Positions 8,486-42,485 of a DNA stretch of 64,000 bases are shown piece after piece. Source of the DNA: Candidatus Eiseniibacteriota bacterium (GTDB taxonomy: Bacteria; Eisenbacteria; RBG-16-71-46; SZUA-252); contig DASTKC010000169.1 of NCBI GenBank assembly GCA_035716085.1, positions 11,162 to 75,161 of the forward strand, given 5' to 3'. Both the position numbers and the translations under genes were made by a program. Within the stretch, counting starts at the first letter, position 1. Every line of letters begins with the position of its first letter. The notes under the pieces are model-generated. The model saw nothing but the letters and a program-made list of their open reading frames with translations, was not told where the DNA came from and searched no databases.

Positions 8486-10879
8486 ATGATTCGCCGGGTG
8501 CTTCCGCTCCTGATCGCGTGCTCCATCGGTGTGCCCTCGGGTCGCGCCGCGGCTCAGATGGTCCGAGCCGATTTTCCGGTGACGGACGGCCCTGTCTACG
8601 TCACGGCGCTCTCGGGAAACACGCTCTACCTGGCCGGCGCGTTCACGCGCGTCGGGACGGCGCTCGGCAGCGCAGTCCCGGTCGATTCCGGCAGCGGCGC
8701 GGCGCTCCCCAACTTCCCCAAGTTCGACGGACCGGTGCACGCCATCCTCGCGGACGGCGCGGGCGGGTGGTACGTCGGCGGCGAGTTCACCAAGGCCGGC
8801 GGCGTGTCGCGCGCCAACCTGGCGCGCGTACTCTCGAACCTCACGGTCGCGTCCTGGAATCCGGGAGCCGATGGTGCTGTTCGCGCGCTCGCGCTGAGCG
8901 GCACCACGGTGTATGTCGGCGGTGACTTCTCCAACGTGGCGGGCCAGGGTCGAAGCCGGATCGCCGCGGTGGATGCATCCACGGGAGCCTTGAGCAGCTG
9001 GAATCCGAGCGCCATCGGCACGGCGGTCCGGACGCTCGCGGTGAGCGGCGCGACGGTCTATGCCGGCGGCGATTTCAGCACTATCGGTGGGCAGTCGCGC
9101 GCCAACATCGCGGCGCTGAGCACCGCCACCGGTCTGGCCATGGCGTGGAATCCCAGCGCGAGCACCGTCGTGGACGTCATCGTCGTGAACGGCCCCACGG
9201 TCTATGCCGGGGGTCTCTTCACGACCATCGGCGGACAGACGCGGCGTCGCATCGCCGCGCTCAACGCCTCGGACGGGCTGGCCACGAGCTGGAACCCCAA
9301 CGTGACGATCGGCGAGGTTTGCGCGATCGCGGTGAGCGGCTCCACGGTCTACGCGGGTGGGAGCTTCAGCACGATCGGCGGGCAATCGCGCCAGAACCTG
9401 GCGGCGCTGAACGCGTCCGACGGCCTCGCGACGTCGCTGATCGCCACGACGAACGGCATCGTTCGCGTGCTTCAGATCCAAGGCCCGAAGCTCTTCGTGG
9501 GCGGGGAGTTCAACTCGTTCCGCTCGGAGGAGCGGCGATACCTGGCGGCTCTCGACACGGGCACGGGTCTGACGTTGCCGTGGAATCCGGCAGCGAACAA
9601 TCCCGTGCACGCGATCGCGGTGAATGGAGCCTCCGTGTGCGTCGGCGGACTCTTCACGACGCTCGGGGGCCAGATCCGAAATCGCCTGGCCGCGGTCGAC
9701 GCCGGCACCGGAGCCTTGCTGCCGTGGAATCCCGACAGCGACTCGGAGGTCTACGCTCTTGTCGTGAGCGGAGGCACGGTCTACGTCGGAGGCTACTTCG
9801 CATCGATCGGCGGTCAGCTCCGAAGCTTCATCGCGGCCGTCGATGCGGTCACCGGCGTGCCGACCGCGTGGGACCCGAACTCGAACGGGCAGATTCTCAG
9901 CCTGGCCGTCGCGAACGGCGTGGTCTACGTCGGCGGCAGCTACACGTCGATCGGAGGCGCCGCGCGCAATTCCCTGGCGGCGCTCGACCCCGCCACGGGC
10001 CTCGCCACGGCCTGGAATCCCGGCGCCAACGATTGGGTGATGTCGCTCCTTCCGGGAACGGGCGTCATCTATGCCGGCGGTTATTTCACGTCGATCGGAG
10101 GGCAGTCTCGCTCCTACATCGCGGCCCTGAGCACCTCGACCGGCCTGGCGACGAGCTGGAATCCAGCGGCAAGCGCCCATGTGGAAGCGCTCGCCATGGG
10201 CACCTCGGTCGTCTACGCCGGGGGAGCCTTCACGACGATCGGAGGACAGCCGCGGAACCGGCTGGCCGCGGTCGCGACGGGGACGGGACTCGCCACCTCC
10301 TGGAATCCCAATGCGGACGACATCGTCTACTCCATGGCCGTCAACGGGAGCACGATGTACGTGGGCGGGAGCTTCACGACCATGGGAGTGTCCGGGCGAA
10401 GCCGCGTGGCGGCCGTCGATATCGCGAGCGGTGCCACGACCTCGTGGAATCCCTCGGCGGACGGCCCGGTGTACTCGATCGCCGCCACGGGCAGCCGGGT
10501 CTACCTGGGCGGTGAGTTCCTCGAAGTCGGAGGACTGCCGCAGAGCGGCGTCGCGAGCATCTTCCCGAACATCACCGCCGTCATCGAAGCCCCGAGCGCC
10601 GTCGAGACCGTGCTCGGTCCGCCTTCACCGAACCCGTTCGTCCAATCGACCTCGATTCGGCTCTCGCTCCAGAAGGATGCGGTCGTCACACTCCGCGTCT
10701 TCGACGTCCACGGCCGGCAGGTCGCCGTGCTGGCCGACGGCAGCTACCCCGCTGGGACGCATGTGTTTGGGTGGGACGGGAGGACCCGGGCCGGCCAGGC
10801 TGCGATGAGCGGCGTCTACTTCTGCGAGCTCAGGACCGCGACCGCTTCCCTCAAGCGAAAGCTCGTCCTCGTTCGCTAG
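8486..10879 (+). CDS. Large secreted repeat protein (about 15 tandem ~47-aa beta-propeller-like repeats) with FlgD-Ig/T9SS-type C-terminal domain
   Basis: Signal peptide. Repeat unit tVYaGGxFttIGGqsRxxIAAldasTGlatsWNP recurs across about 1.9 kb. C-terminus …PNPF…RVFDVHGRQVAVL…SGVYFCEL…KLVLVR matches the T9SS/FlgD-Ig sorting-domain pattern. Confidence 0.7.
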   Translation: MIRRVLPLLIACSIGVPSGRAAAQMVRADFPVTDGPVYVTALSGNTLYLAGAFTRVGTALGSAVPVDSGSGAALPNFPKFDGPVHAILADGAGGWYVGGEFTKAGGVSRANLARVLSNLTVASWNPGADGAVRALALSGTTVYVGGDFSNVAGQGRSRIAAVDASTGALSSWNPSAIGTAVRTLAVSGATVYAGGDFSTIGGQSRANIAALSTATGLAMAWNPSASTVVDVIVVNGPTVYAGGLFTTIGGQTRRRIAALNASDGLATSWNPNVTIGEVCAIAVSGSTVYAGGSFSTIGGQSRQNLAALNASDGLATSLIATTNGIVRVLQIQGPKLFVGGEFNSFRSEERRYLAALDTGTGLTLPWNPAANNPVHAIAVNGASVCVGGLFTTLGGQIRNRLAAVDAGTGALLPWNPDSDSEVYALVVSGGTVYVGGYFASIGGQLRSFIAAVDAVTGVPTAWDPNSNGQILSLAVANGVVYVGGSYTSIGGAARNSLAALDPATGLATAWNPGANDWVMSLLPGTGVIYAGGYFTSIGGQSRSYIAALSTSTGLATSWNPAASAHVEALAMGTSVVYAGGAFTTIGGQPRNRLAAVATGTGLATSWNPNADDIVYSMAVNGSTMYVGGSFTTMGVSGRSRVAAVDIASGATTSWNPSADGPVYSIAATGSRVYLGGEFLEVGGLPQSGVASIFPNITAVIEAPSAVETVLGPPSPNPFVQSTSIRLSLQKDAVVTLRVFDVHGRQVAVLADGSYPAGTHVFGWDGRTRAGQAAMSGVYFCELRTATASLKRKLVLVR

Positions 10880-10885
10880 CGCGGC

Positions 10886-11372
10886 TCAAGGCGTTCGTAA
10901 GATTGTCGAGTCCGCGATCGCGACGAGCCTGTGGATGCGCCAGGACTTGTCGGACGCCTGCTCCGCCAGCAGCGTGTACCGCCCCGACTCCACCTTCGGT
11001 TTCCCCTCCTCCGTGAATTCCTCCTGGAACGTCCCGCTCTGCGCCGCGAGCCCGCCCACGACCTTCATGTCCTCCGGCACCACGCGGAAATTCGTCACGT
11101 CGACGCTCGCGTAGAGGGACGAGAGGAACTCCTGAACGGCCTGGCGGCCGTTGGCGGTGGCCGCGTTCGAGTAAACGACCGAGGCGTCCTCGGTGAAGAT
11201 GCTCTCGAACAGGATCGGGTCGCGCCGGTCCGCCGCTTCGGCGTAGTGGATCCAGAGCGTGTCGATGGCGGCCTTGGCGTTGGCCGCCTGGGAGGCGGTA
11301 TCGAGGTCGGATGTGGCGGAGCACGAAGCCAGGGCGACGAGCAGAGCAACCAGGCCGAGCAGGGTCCGCATA
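10886..11372 (-). CDS. Lipoprotein with NTF2/SnoaL-like (DUF4440-type) domain
   Basis: GGAGGAG RBS. Signal peptide MRTLLGLVALLVALASCSA. About 140-aa alpha+beta domain resembling SnoaL-like proteins (weak, by eye). Confidence 0.45.
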
Positions 11373-11407
11373 GCTCCTCCGTGGAGACGTCGGGTCGAGC
11401 GGCTCCC

Positions 11408-11448
11408 AGGATAACAAAAGGGCCCGGCGCGTGTTGCGCGCCGGGCCC
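11408..11448 (-). terminator. Strong rho-independent terminator (minus strand)
   Basis: Minus-strand read: GGGCCCGGCGCGC aaca GCGCGCCGGGCCC followed by TTTTGTTAT. 12-bp GC stem. Confidence 0.65.
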
Positions 11449-11720
11449 GGTAGGGACCCCCACGTCCCCTTACCCCCCACTGCGTACGGCGTCCCGTCGC
11501 TCCGACCGCCTGCACGCAGGCGCTTTCGCTCGGGGACGCGCGTCGGCCTGACCCCCGTGCAGGCACGACGTCGAAATCGGCGAAGGGGGGACGAGAGCGT
11601 TGCTCACCGATGAGCGCCCCCACGGCGTCCACGTCGGTCCGGCCGCTCACCGGCAGCGCACCGGATCGTCCCCCCTACCCGACTTCGATCGGTTGCGGTC
11701 TCATCGACGCCCGCCCGTCT

Positions 11721-11737
11721 TGGCACCAGCCGTGCCA
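11721..11737. promoter_or_regulatory. Perfect 6-5-6 palindrome TGGCAC-cagcc-GTGCCA in ORF-free region
   Basis: Read directly. Left half equals the sigma-54 -24 element, but the symmetry argues for a dimeric-regulator operator. Confidence 0.35.
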
Positions 11738-11929
11738 GCCTCCCTCGACTGTGCCGCGCGCGGCAAACGCAAGGCGTCCACGGTCTGAAACCGCGTAGCA
11801 ATACCCATTCCTGATCGCCCGAACGTGGAACATTCCACAAAGGGGATGGAGGGAATTGCCGGACTTGTATCCAGGAAAACGTCGGCCGAGGGGTCGAACG
11901 AACAGAAAATGTCGCGAGGTTGGCCGCCT

Positions 11930-12838
11930 CTAGCGAGCCGAGGAGCGGAACGCCTCTTCGACCATGTCGGCGTGGATCGCGACCGTGTCCTCGACGCGTT
12001 GCGCGTAGCCCCCGGCGAGATAGGCCGCGACCGGAACGGAGCGCTCGCGCGCCGCGTCGAAGACGAGCTTGTCCCGCGCGCGCAGGTCCTCGCGCGTCAG
12101 CTTGAGCCCACCGAGCTGGTCCTCCTCGAACGGGTCCGCGCCCGCCACATAGGCCACCAGGTCGGGACGGTGACTCTCGAGGATGCGCGGCACCCAGTGT
12201 CCGAGCGCAGCCAGGTAGACCTTGCCGTCTGCCCCCCGGTCTAGACCGACGTCCTGATCGCTCGGTGGCTTCACGAGCGGGTAGTTGTCCTCCTCGTGGA
12301 TCGAGAAGGTGAAGACACTGGGATCGCCCCGGAAGATGGCGGCCGTCCCGTTTCCCTGATGGACGTCCACGTCGATCACGGCCGCGCGCTGGATCGTCCC
12401 ATCGTGGAGCAGATCGCGGATCGCGATCGCGACGTCGTTCAGCACGCAAAAGCCCTCGCCGTGATCCGCGAACGCGTGGTGGAAGCCTCCCCCGAAGTTC
12501 ACGGCCGCGCCGCGCTCCCTTGCCAGGCGCGCCGCGAGAATGCTCCCTCCCGCACAGAGAAACGAGGCGTCCACGAGCTTCTTCGAGTAGGGAAGCTCGA
12601 GAATGGCCTCCTCGAGCTCGGTGAGCGTCCCCCGCACGAGCTTCTCGATGTACTCCTCGTCGTGAACCCGGGCGACCTGCGCCCGCGTGGCGGGAACGGG
12701 CTCCGCGAAATCGGTCTCGGATGCGAGCCCGCGGCGAACGACCTCGTCCCGGAGCATCCGGAATTTCCGCATGGGAAAGACGTGGAGCCCGATCTCGGCG
12801 AAGTACGCGTGGCTGTGGACGAGCCCAGGCTTGGGCAC
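11930..12838 (-). CDS. Histone deacetylase-family (HDAC/acetoin utilisation/acetylpolyamine amidohydrolase-like) protein
   Basis: GTG start placed at domain boundary (…GLVHSHAYFAEIGLHVFPMRKF…). Motifs FGGGFHHA, CVLNDVAIA, DVDVHQGNGT are typical of the arginase/deacetylase fold. Confidence 0.8.
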   Translation of the reverse strand: MPKPGLVHSHAYFAEIGLHVFPMRKFRMLRDEVVRRGLASETDFAEPVPATRAQVARVHDEEYIEKLVRGTLTELEEAILELPYSKKLVDASFLCAGGSILAARLARERGAAVNFGGGFHHAFADHGEGFCVLNDVAIAIRDLLHDGTIQRAAVIDVDVHQGNGTAAIFRGDPSVFTFSIHEEDNYPLVKPPSDQDVGLDRGADGKVYLAALGHWVPRILESHRPDLVAYVAGADPFEEDQLGGLKLTREDLRARDKLVFDAARERSVPVAAYLAGGYAQRVEDTVAIHADMVEEAFRSSAR

Positions 12839-12843
12839 GGGTC

Positions 12844-13788
12844 CTACTCGAACTGGAACGGGGAGCTGACGCGGTGCGCTTCCGGCACGGCCACCGCGGC
12901 TCCGGCCGGGACGGCGGAGCCGGACGCGGCGGGGACGAGCGCGCGATACAGGACCACGAGCGAGGCCATCACGAATGGGAAGAGGAAGGCCGAGACGGCC
13001 GACGTCCAGACCACGGTCGCGACCTTGAGGAGCGGGTGGTCCCCTCCTGCCACTGCCGTCACAACCTGAAGGATCTCGGCGGGGAAGGAAAGAACCAGGG
13101 CCGCGAGGACGACGAAAAAGAGCACCACGATCAGCCGTCCCAGGATGCCGCCGAAGTGCGACGCGACGAGGCTGAAGCTCACGCGAATCGACCGGAACGG
13201 TCCGCGCCGGTCGAGCACGAGCGCCGGAAACGCGAACCAAAGCATGAAGAGCATCAGGATGGCGTAGATGAGACACGGCACCATCGCGAGGAGCCCGATC
13301 GCTCTCGTCAGCTCTTCCGGCCGCGTTGGAATCGTGCGGACGAGAATGGCAGCCCCGGCGAAAAGGAGGAACGGAGGTCCGGCCACGATGACGAGCTGCG
13401 CGACCGCGCACACGAGGAACGCGAGCATCCGCTCGAGCACCGAGCGGACGGAGCTCCCCAGCGTGGTCGCGACCCCGCGCAAAATTCCGTCCTGGAGCAG
13501 GAGGAATGGCATGTAGATCAGCACGAGGACGGGGATGTAGGCGGGAATCTGGACGAGCGCCGCGCTCGTGACCGCCTGACTGCTCGCCTCGTCGATCGAC
13601 TGCACCCGGTCCATGGAGAGCGCGACGTAGAGGCCCATCCCGAGGCGGTAGAAGTAGAGAAAGATGAGCGCCGGGAATCCGGGCTTGATGGATGCCTTGC
13701 CCAGCGCGAGGACGGTGCGCAGATAGGTGGAGACGGGCGGAAGCGAAGGACGGCTCGCCGGCCGGGGCAGCGTCACCTGATCGTCCAT
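12844..13788 (-). CDS. Integral membrane protein (6-7 TM; GP-PDE-membrane/DUF975-like)
   Basis: Hydrophobic segments throughout. Ends 6 nt before the HDAC-like gene (operon). Family assignment weak. Confidence 0.45.
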   Translation of the reverse strand: MDDQVTLPRPASRPSLPPVSTYLRTVLALGKASIKPGFPALIFLYFYRLGMGLYVALSMDRVQSIDEASSQAVTSAALVQIPAYIPVLVLIYMPFLLLQDGILRGVATTLGSSVRSVLERMLAFLVCAVAQLVIVAGPPFLLFAGAAILVRTIPTRPEELTRAIGLLAMVPCLIYAILMLFMLWFAFPALVLDRRGPFRSIRVSFSLVASHFGGILGRLIVVLFFVVLAALVLSFPAEILQVVTAVAGGDHPLLKVATVVWTSAVSAFLFPFVMASLVVLYRALVPAASGSAVPAGAAVAVPEAHRVSSPFQFE

Positions 13789-13840
13789 CGCTGCATCATA
13801 CCCGGTCGGGCCGAGACGCCCAAGGGGCGCTTCGGTTAGG

Positions 13841-15196
13841 ATGCCGCCGATGATCCGAGGCATGTCGCGAGCCGCGGTCAAGATCAACGAGTGGACGGAG
13901 CGCTGGGTCCCCGGCGCGTTCACCATCGCGTGGATCCTCACGCTCATCGTGATCGTCCTCGCGCTCATCCTGGCCAGAGCCTCGTTCCTGGATTGCGCGC
14001 GCGCCTGGGGCGACGGCTTCTGGGAGCTCCTCCCGTTCTCCATGCAGATGTGCCTCGTGATGTTCACGGGGTCGATCGTCGCCGTGTCTCCCCCCGTCGC
14101 GCGTCTTCTCGCGCGGCTCGCCGCGCTCCCGAAGAGCCCGCGCCAGTCGATCCTCCTCACCGCGCTCGTCTCGATGCTCCTGGCGCTCGTTCACTGGGGG
14201 CTCAGCATCGTGGGAAGCGCCGTGCTCGTGCGCGAGATCGGCCGCGGCCGGACGCGCGTGGACTACCGGCTCCTCGTCGCGGCCGCCTATCTCGGCATGG
14301 GGACGACCTGGCACGCGGGGCTCTCCGCCTCCGCGCCGCTCCTCGTGGCCACGCCAGGGCACTTCCTCGAGAAGGAGATCGGGCTCATTCCGGTGGGTCA
14401 GACGATCTTCTCGCCCTTCAACCTCGTGCTCGTGGCCGTCGTGATCGCCGTGTTCACCGTGATCACGCCGCTCCTCCATCCGTCGCCGGAGCGCACCGTG
14501 ACCGTGGGGGAGGCGCAGCTCGCCGCAATCCGGAGCTTCGCGCCTCCGCGCAAGCCGGCCGGTCCCCTCGCGCCGGCAGCGCGGCTCGAGTACTCGCCGC
14601 TCGTCAACTGGACCTTCGGAGCGCTCGCGCTGGTGTGGCTGGGAGCCTACCTGGCCAAGCCGCAGCACCCGATCACGCTCAACGTCTTGAATTTCGTGAT
14701 GCTCGGGCTCGCGGTGCTCCTCCATCCGTCGGCGGCGTCGCTCGTGGCCGCGGCCGAGGAGGCGGGAGCGCTCGTGTTCGGGATCATCCTCCAGTTCCCG
14801 CTCTACGCCGGCATGTACGGGATCATCCAGTCCACCAAGCTCGCCGAGATCCTCGCGGACGGCTTCGTCCGCATCGCGAACGGATCGACGTACCCGCTCC
14901 TCGTCTACTGGTACTCGGGAATCGTGAACTACTTCGTTCCCTCGGGCGGCTCGAAGTGGGCGATCGAGGCGCCGTACATCCTCGCCGCGGGGAAGAGCCT
15001 CGGCGTCCCGGCCGCGAAGGTGGTGACCGCGTACGCGTGGGGGGACATGATGACCGACATCATCCAGCCCTTCTGGGCGATCCCGCTCCTCGCCGCGGCC
15101 AAGCTCGACTTCCGGGAGATCCTCGGCTTCTGCATGGTGCTTTTCTGCGTCTACGCGCCCATCGTGTCGCTCGCCTTCCTCTTCTTCCCGCGGTAG
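13841..15196 (+). CDS. Short-chain fatty acid transporter (AtoE family)
   Basis: About 450 aa polytopic protein. N-terminus MSRAAVKINEWTERWVPGAFTIAW… and overall architecture resemble AtoE/TIGR00366. By-eye similarity. Confidence 0.65.
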   Translation: MPPMIRGMSRAAVKINEWTERWVPGAFTIAWILTLIVIVLALILARASFLDCARAWGDGFWELLPFSMQMCLVMFTGSIVAVSPPVARLLARLAALPKSPRQSILLTALVSMLLALVHWGLSIVGSAVLVREIGRGRTRVDYRLLVAAAYLGMGTTWHAGLSASAPLLVATPGHFLEKEIGLIPVGQTIFSPFNLVLVAVVIAVFTVITPLLHPSPERTVTVGEAQLAAIRSFAPPRKPAGPLAPAARLEYSPLVNWTFGALALVWLGAYLAKPQHPITLNVLNFVMLGLAVLLHPSAASLVAAAEEAGALVFGIILQFPLYAGMYGIIQSTKLAEILADGFVRIANGSTYPLLVYWYSGIVNYFVPSGGSKWAIEAPYILAAGKSLGVPAAKVVTAYAWGDMMTDIIQPFWAIPLLAAAKLDFREILGFCMVLFCVYAPIVSLAFLFFPR

Positions 15197-24297: not shown

Positions 24298-24704
24298 TGG
24301 CCGCACGCGACGTACCGGAAGCCGAGATCCGGTTTCGCACCTCGCGCGCCGGCGGTCCCGGCGGTCAGAACGTGAACAAGGTGGAAACGCGCGTCGAGGC
24401 TCTGTGGAATCTCGACGCGTCGCTTACGTACACCGACGCGCAGAAGGCCCGCATCCGAAGCGAGCTCCAAACCCGGGTCGGCGCGGACGGCACGATTCGC
24501 GTCGTGAGTCAGCGCCACCGGAGCCAGTCGCGAAATCGCGACGCCGCAGTCGAGCGTCTCCGCGCGCTGGTGGCTGGGGCGCTCAGGCCGAGGCGCAAGA
24601 GGAAGGCGACCCGCCCCACAAAGGCCTCGCGCGAATCCCGAATGGAGTCGAAGCGCCGGCGCGCCGAGACGAAGCGGGACCGAAGGTCGATCCCCGAGGA
24701 CTGA
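24297..24704 (+). CDS. arfB: Peptidyl-tRNA hydrolase ArfB (alternative ribosome-rescue factor B)
   Basis: GTG start overlapping the upstream stop. GGQ motif (RAGGPGGQNVNKVET). Basic Arg/Lys-rich C-terminal tail typical of ArfB/YaeJ. Confidence 0.85.
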   Translation: MAARDVPEAEIRFRTSRAGGPGGQNVNKVETRVEALWNLDASLTYTDAQKARIRSELQTRVGADGTIRVVSQRHRSQSRNRDAAVERLRALVAGALRPRRKRKATRPTKASRESRMESKRRRAETKRDRRSIPED

Positions 24705-24896
24705 GCGCGAGGACCACCCACTCAACACGTTGTACCTAGGGCACTTAAGAGCCTATCCGCCCGCCTCCGCCCGCCCCTTCGACCCAGAAATCCCCTCAAC
24801 AAGACCTCCTCCCAAGTCGATATGTAGCAAGAGAAATCGCGGTCGCATGCCCGGCTCGCGCCGGTCCATGCCCGAGACACCTGGAGGCCGTCCCCC

Positions 24897-40702: not shown

Positions 40703-42189
40703 CAGCGTCCCTGACCTTTCCAGAGGCGCTCGCGGTCCTCGTCGCTCAGGATCGTGACTTCGAGAATGCCGGCCCGGTGCTCGGCCTCTTCCGGCTCCGC
40801 CCACGCCGAGGAGCCTTCATGGCGCGCGGTCGGCAGCGCGATCATCGCGAACGGACGATCGCGCAGCACGGCACGCCCGTTCGGGCTGTCTGCGAGGCAC
40901 TGGAGGAGGGCTTTCCCGTCCAGCCATCCCGTGCGGGCGAAGACGAGCCGCCCCACCGCGGCTCCGTCCAGGAGCTCCGCCACGGAATCGCCGTGAAGGA
41001 GGTCGTCCAGCACGACGATGTCCGCTCCGAGACCGACCGAGGCACGACGCCAGTTCACGCTGGAGGGGTCTCCGGCCTGGAACTGGATCCGGGTCACTCC
41101 CGCGGGATAGGGCGCCGTGGGCCACGGCTCGAAGGCGACGACGCGGCGCTCGGGCTTCATGGCGAGAGACGCGAGCGAGGCGAGCACGGTCGAGCCGCCC
41201 GCCCGCGGCGGGCCGTACACGATCACGAGCCCCTCCGGGCCCTCGACGAATTCGCGAATCTCGCCCTCGCCGAGCGGAGAGAGCCCGAGCAGCGAGAGAT
41301 CGGGCGCCTCGGCTCGATCGGGGTGGAGTCGAAGCACCGTCGTCACGCCGGAAGCGCCGCGAGCGTGGCAGACGCCGACGTGCACGCGATCGCCGCTCAG
41401 GTCGGCCATCACGTGCCCCTGGACTGCGAGCTCACCCATCTCCAGATCCGGCGCGCCCAGGTGCGCGAGGCGCGTGCGCAGGTAGAGCATGGTCTCCGGC
41501 TGCTCGACCCCGCGGGGCTCGAGTCCCTTGTCGGTCCGGTAGTGCACCGCGATGCCGCCCTTTTCCGGCACGAAGTGGATCTCGGACGCACGGTCGTTGC
41601 GCGCGGTATAGACGTGATAGAGGAGGAAGGTCGATCCAGAGCGCTCCCAGACCACCCGGTGGCGCGGCTCGCCCCCGGCCGCGGCCGCTATCGTGGCCGC
41701 CTCGGCCGCGCTCGCGCGCGCGGCGACCTTGTCCCGCGATGGCCGCTCCGGCCCGTAGACGTTGTCGAGCACCCGGCGGATCGACCCCTGGCAGCCGATG
41801 ACGAGCGAGACGGGCATCCCCGCCGCCTGCTCGATCTCCCTCACGGCCTCGGAGTCGGTGGGATCGGACATCGCGATGACCATCTCCTCCGGGTTCTGGA
41901 AGAGGGGCATCGCCTGGATGCGACGAAGGAGCGATTCGGGGAAGCGCCGGACGAGATCCATGTCGGCGGCGCCGGACGCGAGGTCCACATACGGAATGCC
42001 GAGCTGCTTGGAGAGGGCCCAGCCGATGTTCTCCTCGGTCGTGAAGCCCATCTCGACGAGGCTCTCGCCGATCAGGCGGCCGGTCTCGAGCTGCTGCTGG
42101 AACGCGGCATCCACCTGTTCCGGAGTCACGATCCCGCCGTCGATCAGGATCGACGCCAGGGTCCGCTTCGTCTGACCGGTCTCGCTCAC
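40702..42189 (-). CDS. MshEN-domain (c-di-GMP receptor type) protein fused to degenerate GspE/PilB-like ATPase domain
   Basis: N-terminus has two MshEN motifs (RTLASILIDGGIVTPEQVDAAFQQQ; RLIGESLVEMGFTTEENIGWALSKQ). C-terminal P-loop region degenerate (GPPRAGGST instead of GPTGSGKT; Walker B/His box not conserved). Start uncertain (GTG 42189, or ATG 42249/42288). ATGA overlap with pilT. Confidence 0.6.
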   Translation of the reverse strand: MSETGQTKRTLASILIDGGIVTPEQVDAAFQQQLETGRLIGESLVEMGFTTEENIGWALSKQLGIPYVDLASGAADMDLVRRFPESLLRRIQAMPLFQNPEEMVIAMSDPTDSEAVREIEQAAGMPVSLVIGCQGSIRRVLDNVYGPERPSRDKVAARASAAEAATIAAAAGGEPRHRVVWERSGSTFLLYHVYTARNDRASEIHFVPEKGGIAVHYRTDKGLEPRGVEQPETMLYLRTRLAHLGAPDLEMGELAVQGHVMADLSGDRVHVGVCHARGASGVTTVLRLHPDRAEAPDLSLLGLSPLGEGEIREFVEGPEGLVIVYGPPRAGGSTVLASLASLAMKPERRVVAFEPWPTAPYPAGVTRIQFQAGDPSSVNWRRASVGLGADIVVLDDLLHGDSVAELLDGAAVGRLVFARTGWLDGKALLQCLADSPNGRAVLRDRPFAMIALPTARHEGSSAWAEPEEAEHRAGILEVTILSDEDRERLWKGQGR

Positions 42190-42485
42190 GAGGCACCTCT
42201 GCGTCCGGGGGTTGGGAATCGATTCGGCCCTGGGCGAATCGCAAGGCATGTGCCATGCGTACCCCACGGCATGGCGCGCCAGGGCCATGGCCGCCGCCTT
42301 GCTCGATTCGGAGGGAACGCGGTGCGAAATGGCGAGTTGAGAAGCGATGAGCGGTGGGTCGCAGCCCCTGGCGGGGACCTCTACGCGGCTCCCGGGGCGG
42401 CGCAATGCTTGCCCCTTGCTCGGCCAGCGGTTATTTTCTGCGCGGTTTCCATGCAGCGCATCGACACCTCATCGGACGGGAGCCC

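Follow-up and report, generated by a model that had tools for sequence, protein, structure and literature searches.

The locus raises the question of what occupies the 558 nt (positions 11372–11929) between an HDAC-like gene and a SnoaL-like gene on the minus strand of the window, i.e., the whole 64,000-nt stretch of DNA that was analysed. The original prediction saw no convincing ORF in this gap and proposed a minus-strand non-coding transcript of 100–480 nt running to a terminator, which could be an sRNA, a leader or a long 3′UTR of the HDAC operon. Its position for the HDAC-like stop, 11930, agrees with the TAG codon at 11932–11930, and the SnoaL-like start, placed at 11372, has to be moved to the ATG at 11371–11369. 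The HDAC-like protein shows 94% identity to its counterpart in a soil MAG of Candidatus Eisenbacteria, and the SnoaL-like product is a 161-aa lipoprotein matching Pfam DUF4440 and SnoaL_4, with a lipobox signal peptide following the ATG. Upstream of the HDAC-like gene lie a gene for a DUF7847/GPDPase_memb-like membrane protein and, divergent from it, a short-chain fatty acid transporter gene (SCFA_trans; both within 12844–15196), an arrangement kept in relatives. Elsewhere in the window, a plus-strand region that seemed ORF-free by a crude gene call (24298–24705) encodes an ordinary ArfB-like peptidyl-tRNA hydrolase with a GGQ motif. The features discussed below are collected in Table 1.

Table 1. 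Coordinates of the features of the gap, its flanking genes and related elements of the window.
Feature	Position	Strand	Description
NtrC-type enhancer-binding protein gene	230–1624	plus	receiver, Sigma54_activat (1.6e-68) and HTH_8 domains; loop motif GSFTGA
SnoaL/DUF4440 lipoprotein gene	10886–11380	minus	SD GGAGGAG 11380–11374, ATG 11371–11369
Extended −10-like box TGtTATCCT	11408–11416	minus	overlaps terminator tail; by-eye consensus match
Intrinsic terminator	11410–11448	minus	12-bp GC stem 11448–11420, loop CAACA, tail UUUUGUUAU
Hairpin H4 (GGGGAC/GUCCCU)	11452–11469	minus	inside variable G-rich linker 11449–11485
Conserved core	11486–11672	minus	187 nt; R1 score, pairing, conservation
Variable 5′ segment of the predicted RNA	11673–11711	minus	3′ part (TCGAAGTCGG..GTAGGG) pairs with 11566–11588 and extends P1
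Sigma-54-type promoter motif, TGGCAC (−24), N5, GTGC (−12)	11723–11737	minus	conserved island
Candidate upstream activating region	11807–11860	minus	conserved AT-rich blocks, variable GC-rich spacers
Invariant block CTGTTCGTT	11897–11905	minus	25 nt after HDAC stop; invariant in 10/10 full-length homologues
HDAC-like ORF stop (TAG)	11932–11930	minus	
Perfect sigma-54 consensus TGGCACATGCCTTGC	42241–42255	minus	precedes the GTG (42189) of an MshEN/T2SSE ATPase gene by ~50 nt

The comparison set comprised the window and 13 other non-redundant homologous regions, i.e., 14 sequences of about six lineages, all on Candidatus Eisenbacteria contigs; the homologues were taken from three MAG loci, from three metagenome contigs found with the pattern of an invariant hairpin and from contigs with close SnoaL homologues. 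The order of HDAC gene, gap of 545–575 nt and SnoaL gene is present in all 14 sequences. Within the gap, the core is 87–96% identical across lineages, compared with 58–86% at codon position 3 of both flanking genes; e.g., the core of locus L002 is 90.7% identical, and the third codon positions of its HDAC and SnoaL genes are 62% and 58% identical, respectively. A covariance model of the core, R1, scored 210 bits in the window and 177–210 bits in 13 other complete-core loci, the next best match anywhere being 17 bits; the core is single-copy within the window, with one copy per locus. Five independent metagenome contigs (L082, L083, L086, L098 and L099) start inside the RNA, and assembly breaks seem to be clustered at this hyper-conserved segment, perhaps since co-occurring strains share it.

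Such conservation could belong to a decayed or frameshifted protein-coding gene or to a small-protein gene, the more so as several ORFs of 45–62 aa lie inside the gap, which is also crossed by an in-frame, 254-aa extension of the SnoaL ORF. The four internal ORFs tested have no Pfam match, however, gene callers left the gap empty on every related contig, and conservation in the gap is equal across all three codon positions. The most conserved part contains 1-nt indels, namely an extra T after GGGACGA in L013 and L082, GAGCCAAT in L081, CAA-GC in L082 and GTCCCCC in L002 and L085, and because of these a coding frame through the core is excluded; the extension of the SnoaL ORF is ended in L081 and L092 by a stop eight codons upstream of the ATG. 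The gap is thus non-coding, as the original prediction had it; the frameshifted or odd-start gene that would have spoken against it was looked for across the homologues and was not found, indels and stops breaking the frames, and a coding origin of the region is hardly credible.

The origin of the gap is indicated by an outgroup lineage (HDAC 70% and SnoaL 52% identity), which keeps the order DUF4350, DUF7847, HDAC, SnoaL and has only 11 nt, TAAaGGAGaacagaATG, from the HDAC stop to the SnoaL start. In two further gene contexts, SnoaL homologues likewise adjoin the upstream gene directly; outside the clade, no leader was found before the SnoaL homologues of three different contexts. Since the flanking genes of the outgroup are only 11 nt apart, the region is regarded as a clade-specific insertion; the simplest reading of this comparison with a single syntenic outgroup is that about 550 nt were gained in the window's clade by insertion into the operon junction, and a deletion in the outgroup could also account for the difference. 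ORF-poor gaps of about 460–520 nt follow the HDAC gene in two other contigs as well, an Eisenbacteria MAG (L003, 1059–1575) and a contig labelled Acidobacteriota (L004, 4906–5367), both without detectable similarity to the RNA.

A fold model of the RNA was built from lineage-averaged pair probabilities, with RNAalifold and inspection. In this model, helix P1 (GGGACGA/UCGUCCC) closes a four-way junction with nearly no unpaired junction bases and with the arms D1a (9 bp, loop GCCGGUG), D1b with D1c, and D1d; the junction is followed by the invariant hairpin H2 (loop GGGG) and then by helix P5, with a bulged C, which encloses hairpin H3. The 5′ segment of the predicted RNA is lineage-specific in length and sequence, and its pairing with the strand that follows P1 is kept, with double changes at columns 31:149, 33:147 and 44:136. 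Hairpin H4 varies in sequence, with partial compensation and 77% of cells paired, and its support is weak. In a 10-sequence alignment, 91% of the cells of the full-length model are paired, compared with 38–46% when the partners are slid, and in the model-fitted core alignment 99% of the pair cells of the core model are paired, compared with 33–46%.

Compensatory changes in homologous regions, suggested in the original prediction as a check, were found at four core pairs and eight full-length pairs; in the 10-sequence alignment, the latter comprise 16 cells with double changes, and the observed covariation score was reached in 0 of 500 shuffles. The core pairs are D1a 60:74, D1b 84:112, P5 182:236 and H3 200:219. 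Pair D1b 84:112 occurs in three types (C-G, G-C and A-U) and P5 182:236 changes from G-C to A-U, while D1a 60:74, mostly C-G, is C.C in L095 and G-C in its sisters L094, L097 and L093, a series that reads as an intermediate followed by compensation. The compensatory support for the fold appears real but thin, because the independent events are few; most pairs are invariant among the 14 closely related sequences, from which the structure was also partly derived. The single-sequence MFE fold of the window, in which a rod-like D1 replaces the junction, was rejected (82% paired, the long D1 helix being broken in 5–7 of 10 sequences), as was a helix CCGGUGAGC/GCUCAUCGG (I12), which shows uncompensated changes. 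Both strands fold better than shuffled sequences, with z of −3.7 and −4.1 over 525 nt and of −5.1 and −5.5 over the 302-nt unit; the minus strand is the more stable of the two, at −178 vs. −165 kcal/mol for that unit.

The strand is indicated by the terminator, which is readable only on the minus strand. Every lineage retains its stem, and the pair at column 293:304 shows a compensatory switch from G-C to A-U; in the window, TTTTGTTAT follows the stem, to position 11411. The 12-bp GC stem and the minus-strand U-tail had been predicted correctly, and the loop, given as AACA, is the 5-nt CAACA. The U-rich stretch begins 4–6 nt past the stem in L093–L097, L083 and L002/L085, the spacer in the window being 1 nt. 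The −10-like box that overlaps the tail, TAT(C/G)CT, mostly with an upstream TG, is found in every lineage 36–41 nt from the ATG, with a varying distance to the stem, and is possibly the SnoaL-like gene's own promoter. In most lineages, the 3′ arm of H4 (GUCCYC, 11452–11457) can also pair with a conserved UGGGRAC (11401–11407, minus strand); this pairing would possibly form a long-range helix bracketing the terminator.

The search for a minus-strand promoter upstream, another of the proposed checks, revealed no sigma-70 −35/−10 promoter in the gap, either by scan or by eye, and returned a match of sigma-54 type, TGGCAC-N5-GTGC; Bacteroidetes-type and ECF-type promoter motifs in the gap were also considered and were not convincing. 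The match lies within the TGGCAC-N5-GTGCCA palindrome, which the original prediction had located exactly, at 11721–11737. Its sequence, CTGGCACGGCTGGTGC at 11738–11723, has the GG at −24 and the GC at −12 of a sigma-54 promoter in the spacing TGGCAC-N5-TTGC, with G for T at −15 and C for A/T after the GC. The motif is kept in all 10 homologues that reach the site (as TGGCAT in L001), whereas its flanks differ among them in both sequence and length over 50 nt in each direction. L002 and L085 have lost the 3′ end of the palindrome (GTGCGA), so that the motif is broken on the opposite strand and intact on the strand of the RNA. The pattern TGGCAC-N5-KTGC has three matches in the window compared with 0.12 expected, two of them being the palindrome read on each strand. 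As the site is a near-perfect palindrome and its −12 element is GTGCC rather than TTGCW, it could instead be the binding site of a dimeric repressor or activator. With the sigma-54 promoter, the predicted +1 is near 11711, about 12 nt after the −12 C; in every lineage, pairing begins 8–25 nt after this predicted start, and the resulting RNA would be about 300 nt long.

The third match, the perfect sigma-54 consensus further along the window, is intergenic and on the same strand as the MshEN/T2SSE gene near 42189, which encodes a type IV pilus/T2SS secretion or pilus ATPase; the motif is likely a second sigma-54 promoter. The NtrC-type enhancer-binding protein encoded at the start of the window may possibly be the activator of the RNA promoter 10 kb away; the rpoN gene was not found in the window.

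The roughly 200 bp upstream of the promoter motif contain invariant AT-rich blocks (CTGTTCGTT, CGTTT, TACAA, GGCAA, TTTGTGGAAT and GCTACGCG) and have no convincing consensus RNA fold (alifold −16.6 kcal/mol). The candidate activating region, centred ~95 bp upstream of the −24 element, carries in the window an array of four GGAAY half-sites around an inverted repeat: ATTCC (11856–11852), N13, GTGGAA-TG-TTCCAC (11838–11825), N13 and GGAAT (11811–11807), with TTTGTGGAAT (11841–11832) invariant. The inverted repeat had been recognised in the original prediction, with coordinates one base off (it lies at 11825–11838). Taken alone, GTGGAA-N2-TTCCAC is not above chance in the window, a match occurring in 42 of 100 shuffles; most related lineages retain the repeat as TGGAA-N1-2-TTCCA, and one has it reduced to TGGAAT-TTCC. 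By inference only, this region is putative activator-binding DNA, and both palindromes of the gap are best read as DNA signals, i.e., a sigma-54 promoter and an upstream activator site, and not as RNA features. Nearer to the HDAC-like gene, lineage-specific hairpins, recognised by eye, precede the CTGTTCGTT block, which may be the U-rich tail of a terminator of the HDAC operon or a protein-binding site.

These upstream features bear on the suggestion that the transcript is a long 3′UTR of the HDAC-like operon, or an sRNA processed from it, with no promoter of its own. In favour of this, the region follows the HDAC stop immediately and on the same strand, and the gap has its only canonical terminator at the far end; however, the −24/−12 motif is a conserved island between variable flanks, the first 200 nt show DNA-site-like conservation with no consensus fold, and the hairpins and U-rich invariant block after the HDAC stop could, as judged by eye, end the operon transcript. 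A 3′UTR is thus quite improbable and the least likely of the three options of the original prediction, of which both the sRNA and the leader are viable. Likewise, the resemblance of the upstream 200 bp to protein-binding DNA, and of TGGCAC..GTGCCA to a possible operator, would agree with a DNA-level regulatory region that serves the SnoaL gene only, where the core is bound as DNA and any RNA is non-functional; we consider this very unlikely, as operator DNA does not look like a near-invariant, GC-rich stretch of 187 nt that combines nested helices and compensatory changes with a terminator specific to one strand, and SnoaL homologues elsewhere do without such an upstream region.

Searches against Rfam 15 gave no match in the whole window at gathering thresholds, and at E ≤ 10 the window, gap and core gave only noise (11–18 bits, with thresholds of 35–112), in agreement with the original prediction, which had seen no match to RNase P, tmRNA, SRP or 6S RNA by eye. 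By-eye comparison with the consensus of cobalamin, SAM-I, FMN, ZTP, ykkC, SRP, RNase P, 6S and tmRNA produced only short chance resemblances, consistent with the Rfam result, and ARAGORN found no tRNA or tmRNA gene in 10800–12500. A sponge of the CsrB/RsmZ type was rejected by eye, the loops being GCCGGUG, GUGGG, GGGG and the variable CAAC-type loop of D1d, and the single GGA in D1b not being conserved. The scan of metagenomes with the pattern of the invariant hairpin returned only three matches, all syntenic close relatives; nhmmer, a fuzzy motif search and the covariance model detected no distant homologues beside HDAC genes of other Eisenbacteria. A mobile-element or plasmid/phage origin was rejected, plasmid and phage collections containing no similarity to the region. 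As far as we can see, the RNA is confined to one Eisenbacteria clade.

The alternative with the most to recommend it treats the RNA as the 5′ leader of the SnoaL/DUF4440 lipoprotein gene, acting in cis in the manner of a riboswitch or attenuator: the sigma-54 transcript would fold into a sensor domain, and the terminator would set whether polymerase continues into the gene. The layout of promoter, structured domain, terminator, 36 nt, SD and ATG is that of a classic leader; the RNA lies 36 nt upstream of a same-strand gene whose only other promoter candidate is weak, the element always accompanies the SnoaL gene, a terminator U-tract set off from the stem in three lineages makes read-through plausible, and the alternative partner of the H4 3′ arm lies past the terminator. 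Set against this, a variable linker of 37 nt separates the core from the terminator, and inspection revealed no alternative helix, conserved among the lineages, that could compete with the terminator; a conserved −10-like box stands between terminator and gene, and SnoaL homologues occur in three other contexts with no leader. A riboswitch, in particular, is not supported, the element showing no recurrence across taxa, only syntenic copies in one clade, one per locus, unlike riboswitch classes, and no match to a riboswitch in Rfam; a sigma-54 promoter would also be unusual for a riboswitch. We regard a leader as possible, though somewhat unlikely.

The reading that we prefer, and consider somewhat probable, is that the gap is a self-contained gene for a sigma-54-dependent structured RNA of about 300 nt, transcribed from the minus strand. 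An enhancer-binding protein at the GGAAY/TGGAA-TTCCA sites (11807–11860) would activate sigma-54 RNA polymerase at 11737–11723; transcription would begin near 11711, traverse the 187-nt core, with its four-way junction and closing stem and then its second domain, and end at the intrinsic terminator (11448–11410). The RNA would act as a regulator in its own right, and the SnoaL-like gene would owe its expression to the −10-like box in the terminator tail, to read-through or to both. We infer transcription, its start, its sigma-54 dependence and an action in trans from the sequences compared here. The core of the original prediction, a minus-strand non-coding transcript of 100–480 nt to the terminator, gains support from the conservation of the core, the indels, the compensatory changes, the greater stability of the minus-strand fold and the strand-specific terminator. 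The same element could serve as an independent RNA gene and a leader at once, termination giving the RNA and read-through the mRNA. Because its invariant core is long, a protein- or ligand-binding RNA is favoured over a short-seed antisense RNA, of which such a core is less typical. It is conceivable, though doubtful, that the core represents a new sensor or catalytic RNA class, inserted into an operon and under sigma-54 control; if so, a four-way-junction sensor, binding a ligand or protein, would couple a signal to the expression of the SnoaL-like lipoprotein or of a wider Eisenbacteria regulon.

To our knowledge, Candidatus Eisenbacteria have no cultured member, and we know of no regulatory RNA described from them; a literature search on the phylum name returned ecology and genomics papers only. 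The element would thus be the first candidate regulatory RNA for Candidatus Eisenbacteria, whose promoter, fold and terminator are specified closely enough for testing, and it is an apparent case of a complete RNA gene arising within a once-tight operon junction. The covariance model R1 can be used for scanning more genomes.

Among known systems, terminating riboswitch and attenuator leaders share with the candidate the arrangement of a conserved junction domain of several helices and then an intrinsic terminator, immediately before the RBS; the candidate differs in its variable linker, in having no conserved anti-terminator seen, in its restriction to one gene and one clade, and in matching no class. 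Its 7-bp closing stem and ~91-nt domain with almost no unpaired junction bases resemble tRNA-like four-way-junction RNAs (tRNA, tmRNA domain), but it has no T-loop or D-loop signature, and the arm lengths differ (a 9-bp arm and an arm with a 3–4-nt loop); presumably, the four-way-junction domain of the bacterial Y-RNA-like YrlA is a further likeness.

Small RNAs driven by sigma-54 are established, e.g., GlmY/GlmZ (PMC3045617), Qrr1 (PMC10162802) and CrcZ (PMC6296734), and the candidate is best likened to GlmY/GlmZ of Enterobacteriaceae, Qrr of Vibrio, CrcZ/CrcY of Pseudomonas and NcS25 of Burkholderia (PMC3045617, PMC10162802, PMC6296734, PMC8871633, PMC10117139). It differs from them in its phylum, in being homologous to none of them by sequence or structure, in having no repeated protein-binding motif like the A-rich motifs of CrcZ, and in that its sigma-54 dependence is predicted from sequence. 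Common to these RNAs and, as predicted, to the candidate are a stand-alone non-coding gene, a −24/−12 promoter, activator sites ~100 bp upstream, a structured RNA of roughly 100–400 nt and an intrinsic terminator. Small RNAs under sigma-54 control are familiar, as are structured RNAs specific to a lineage, and the RNA would be a new family of a known kind, overturning nothing.
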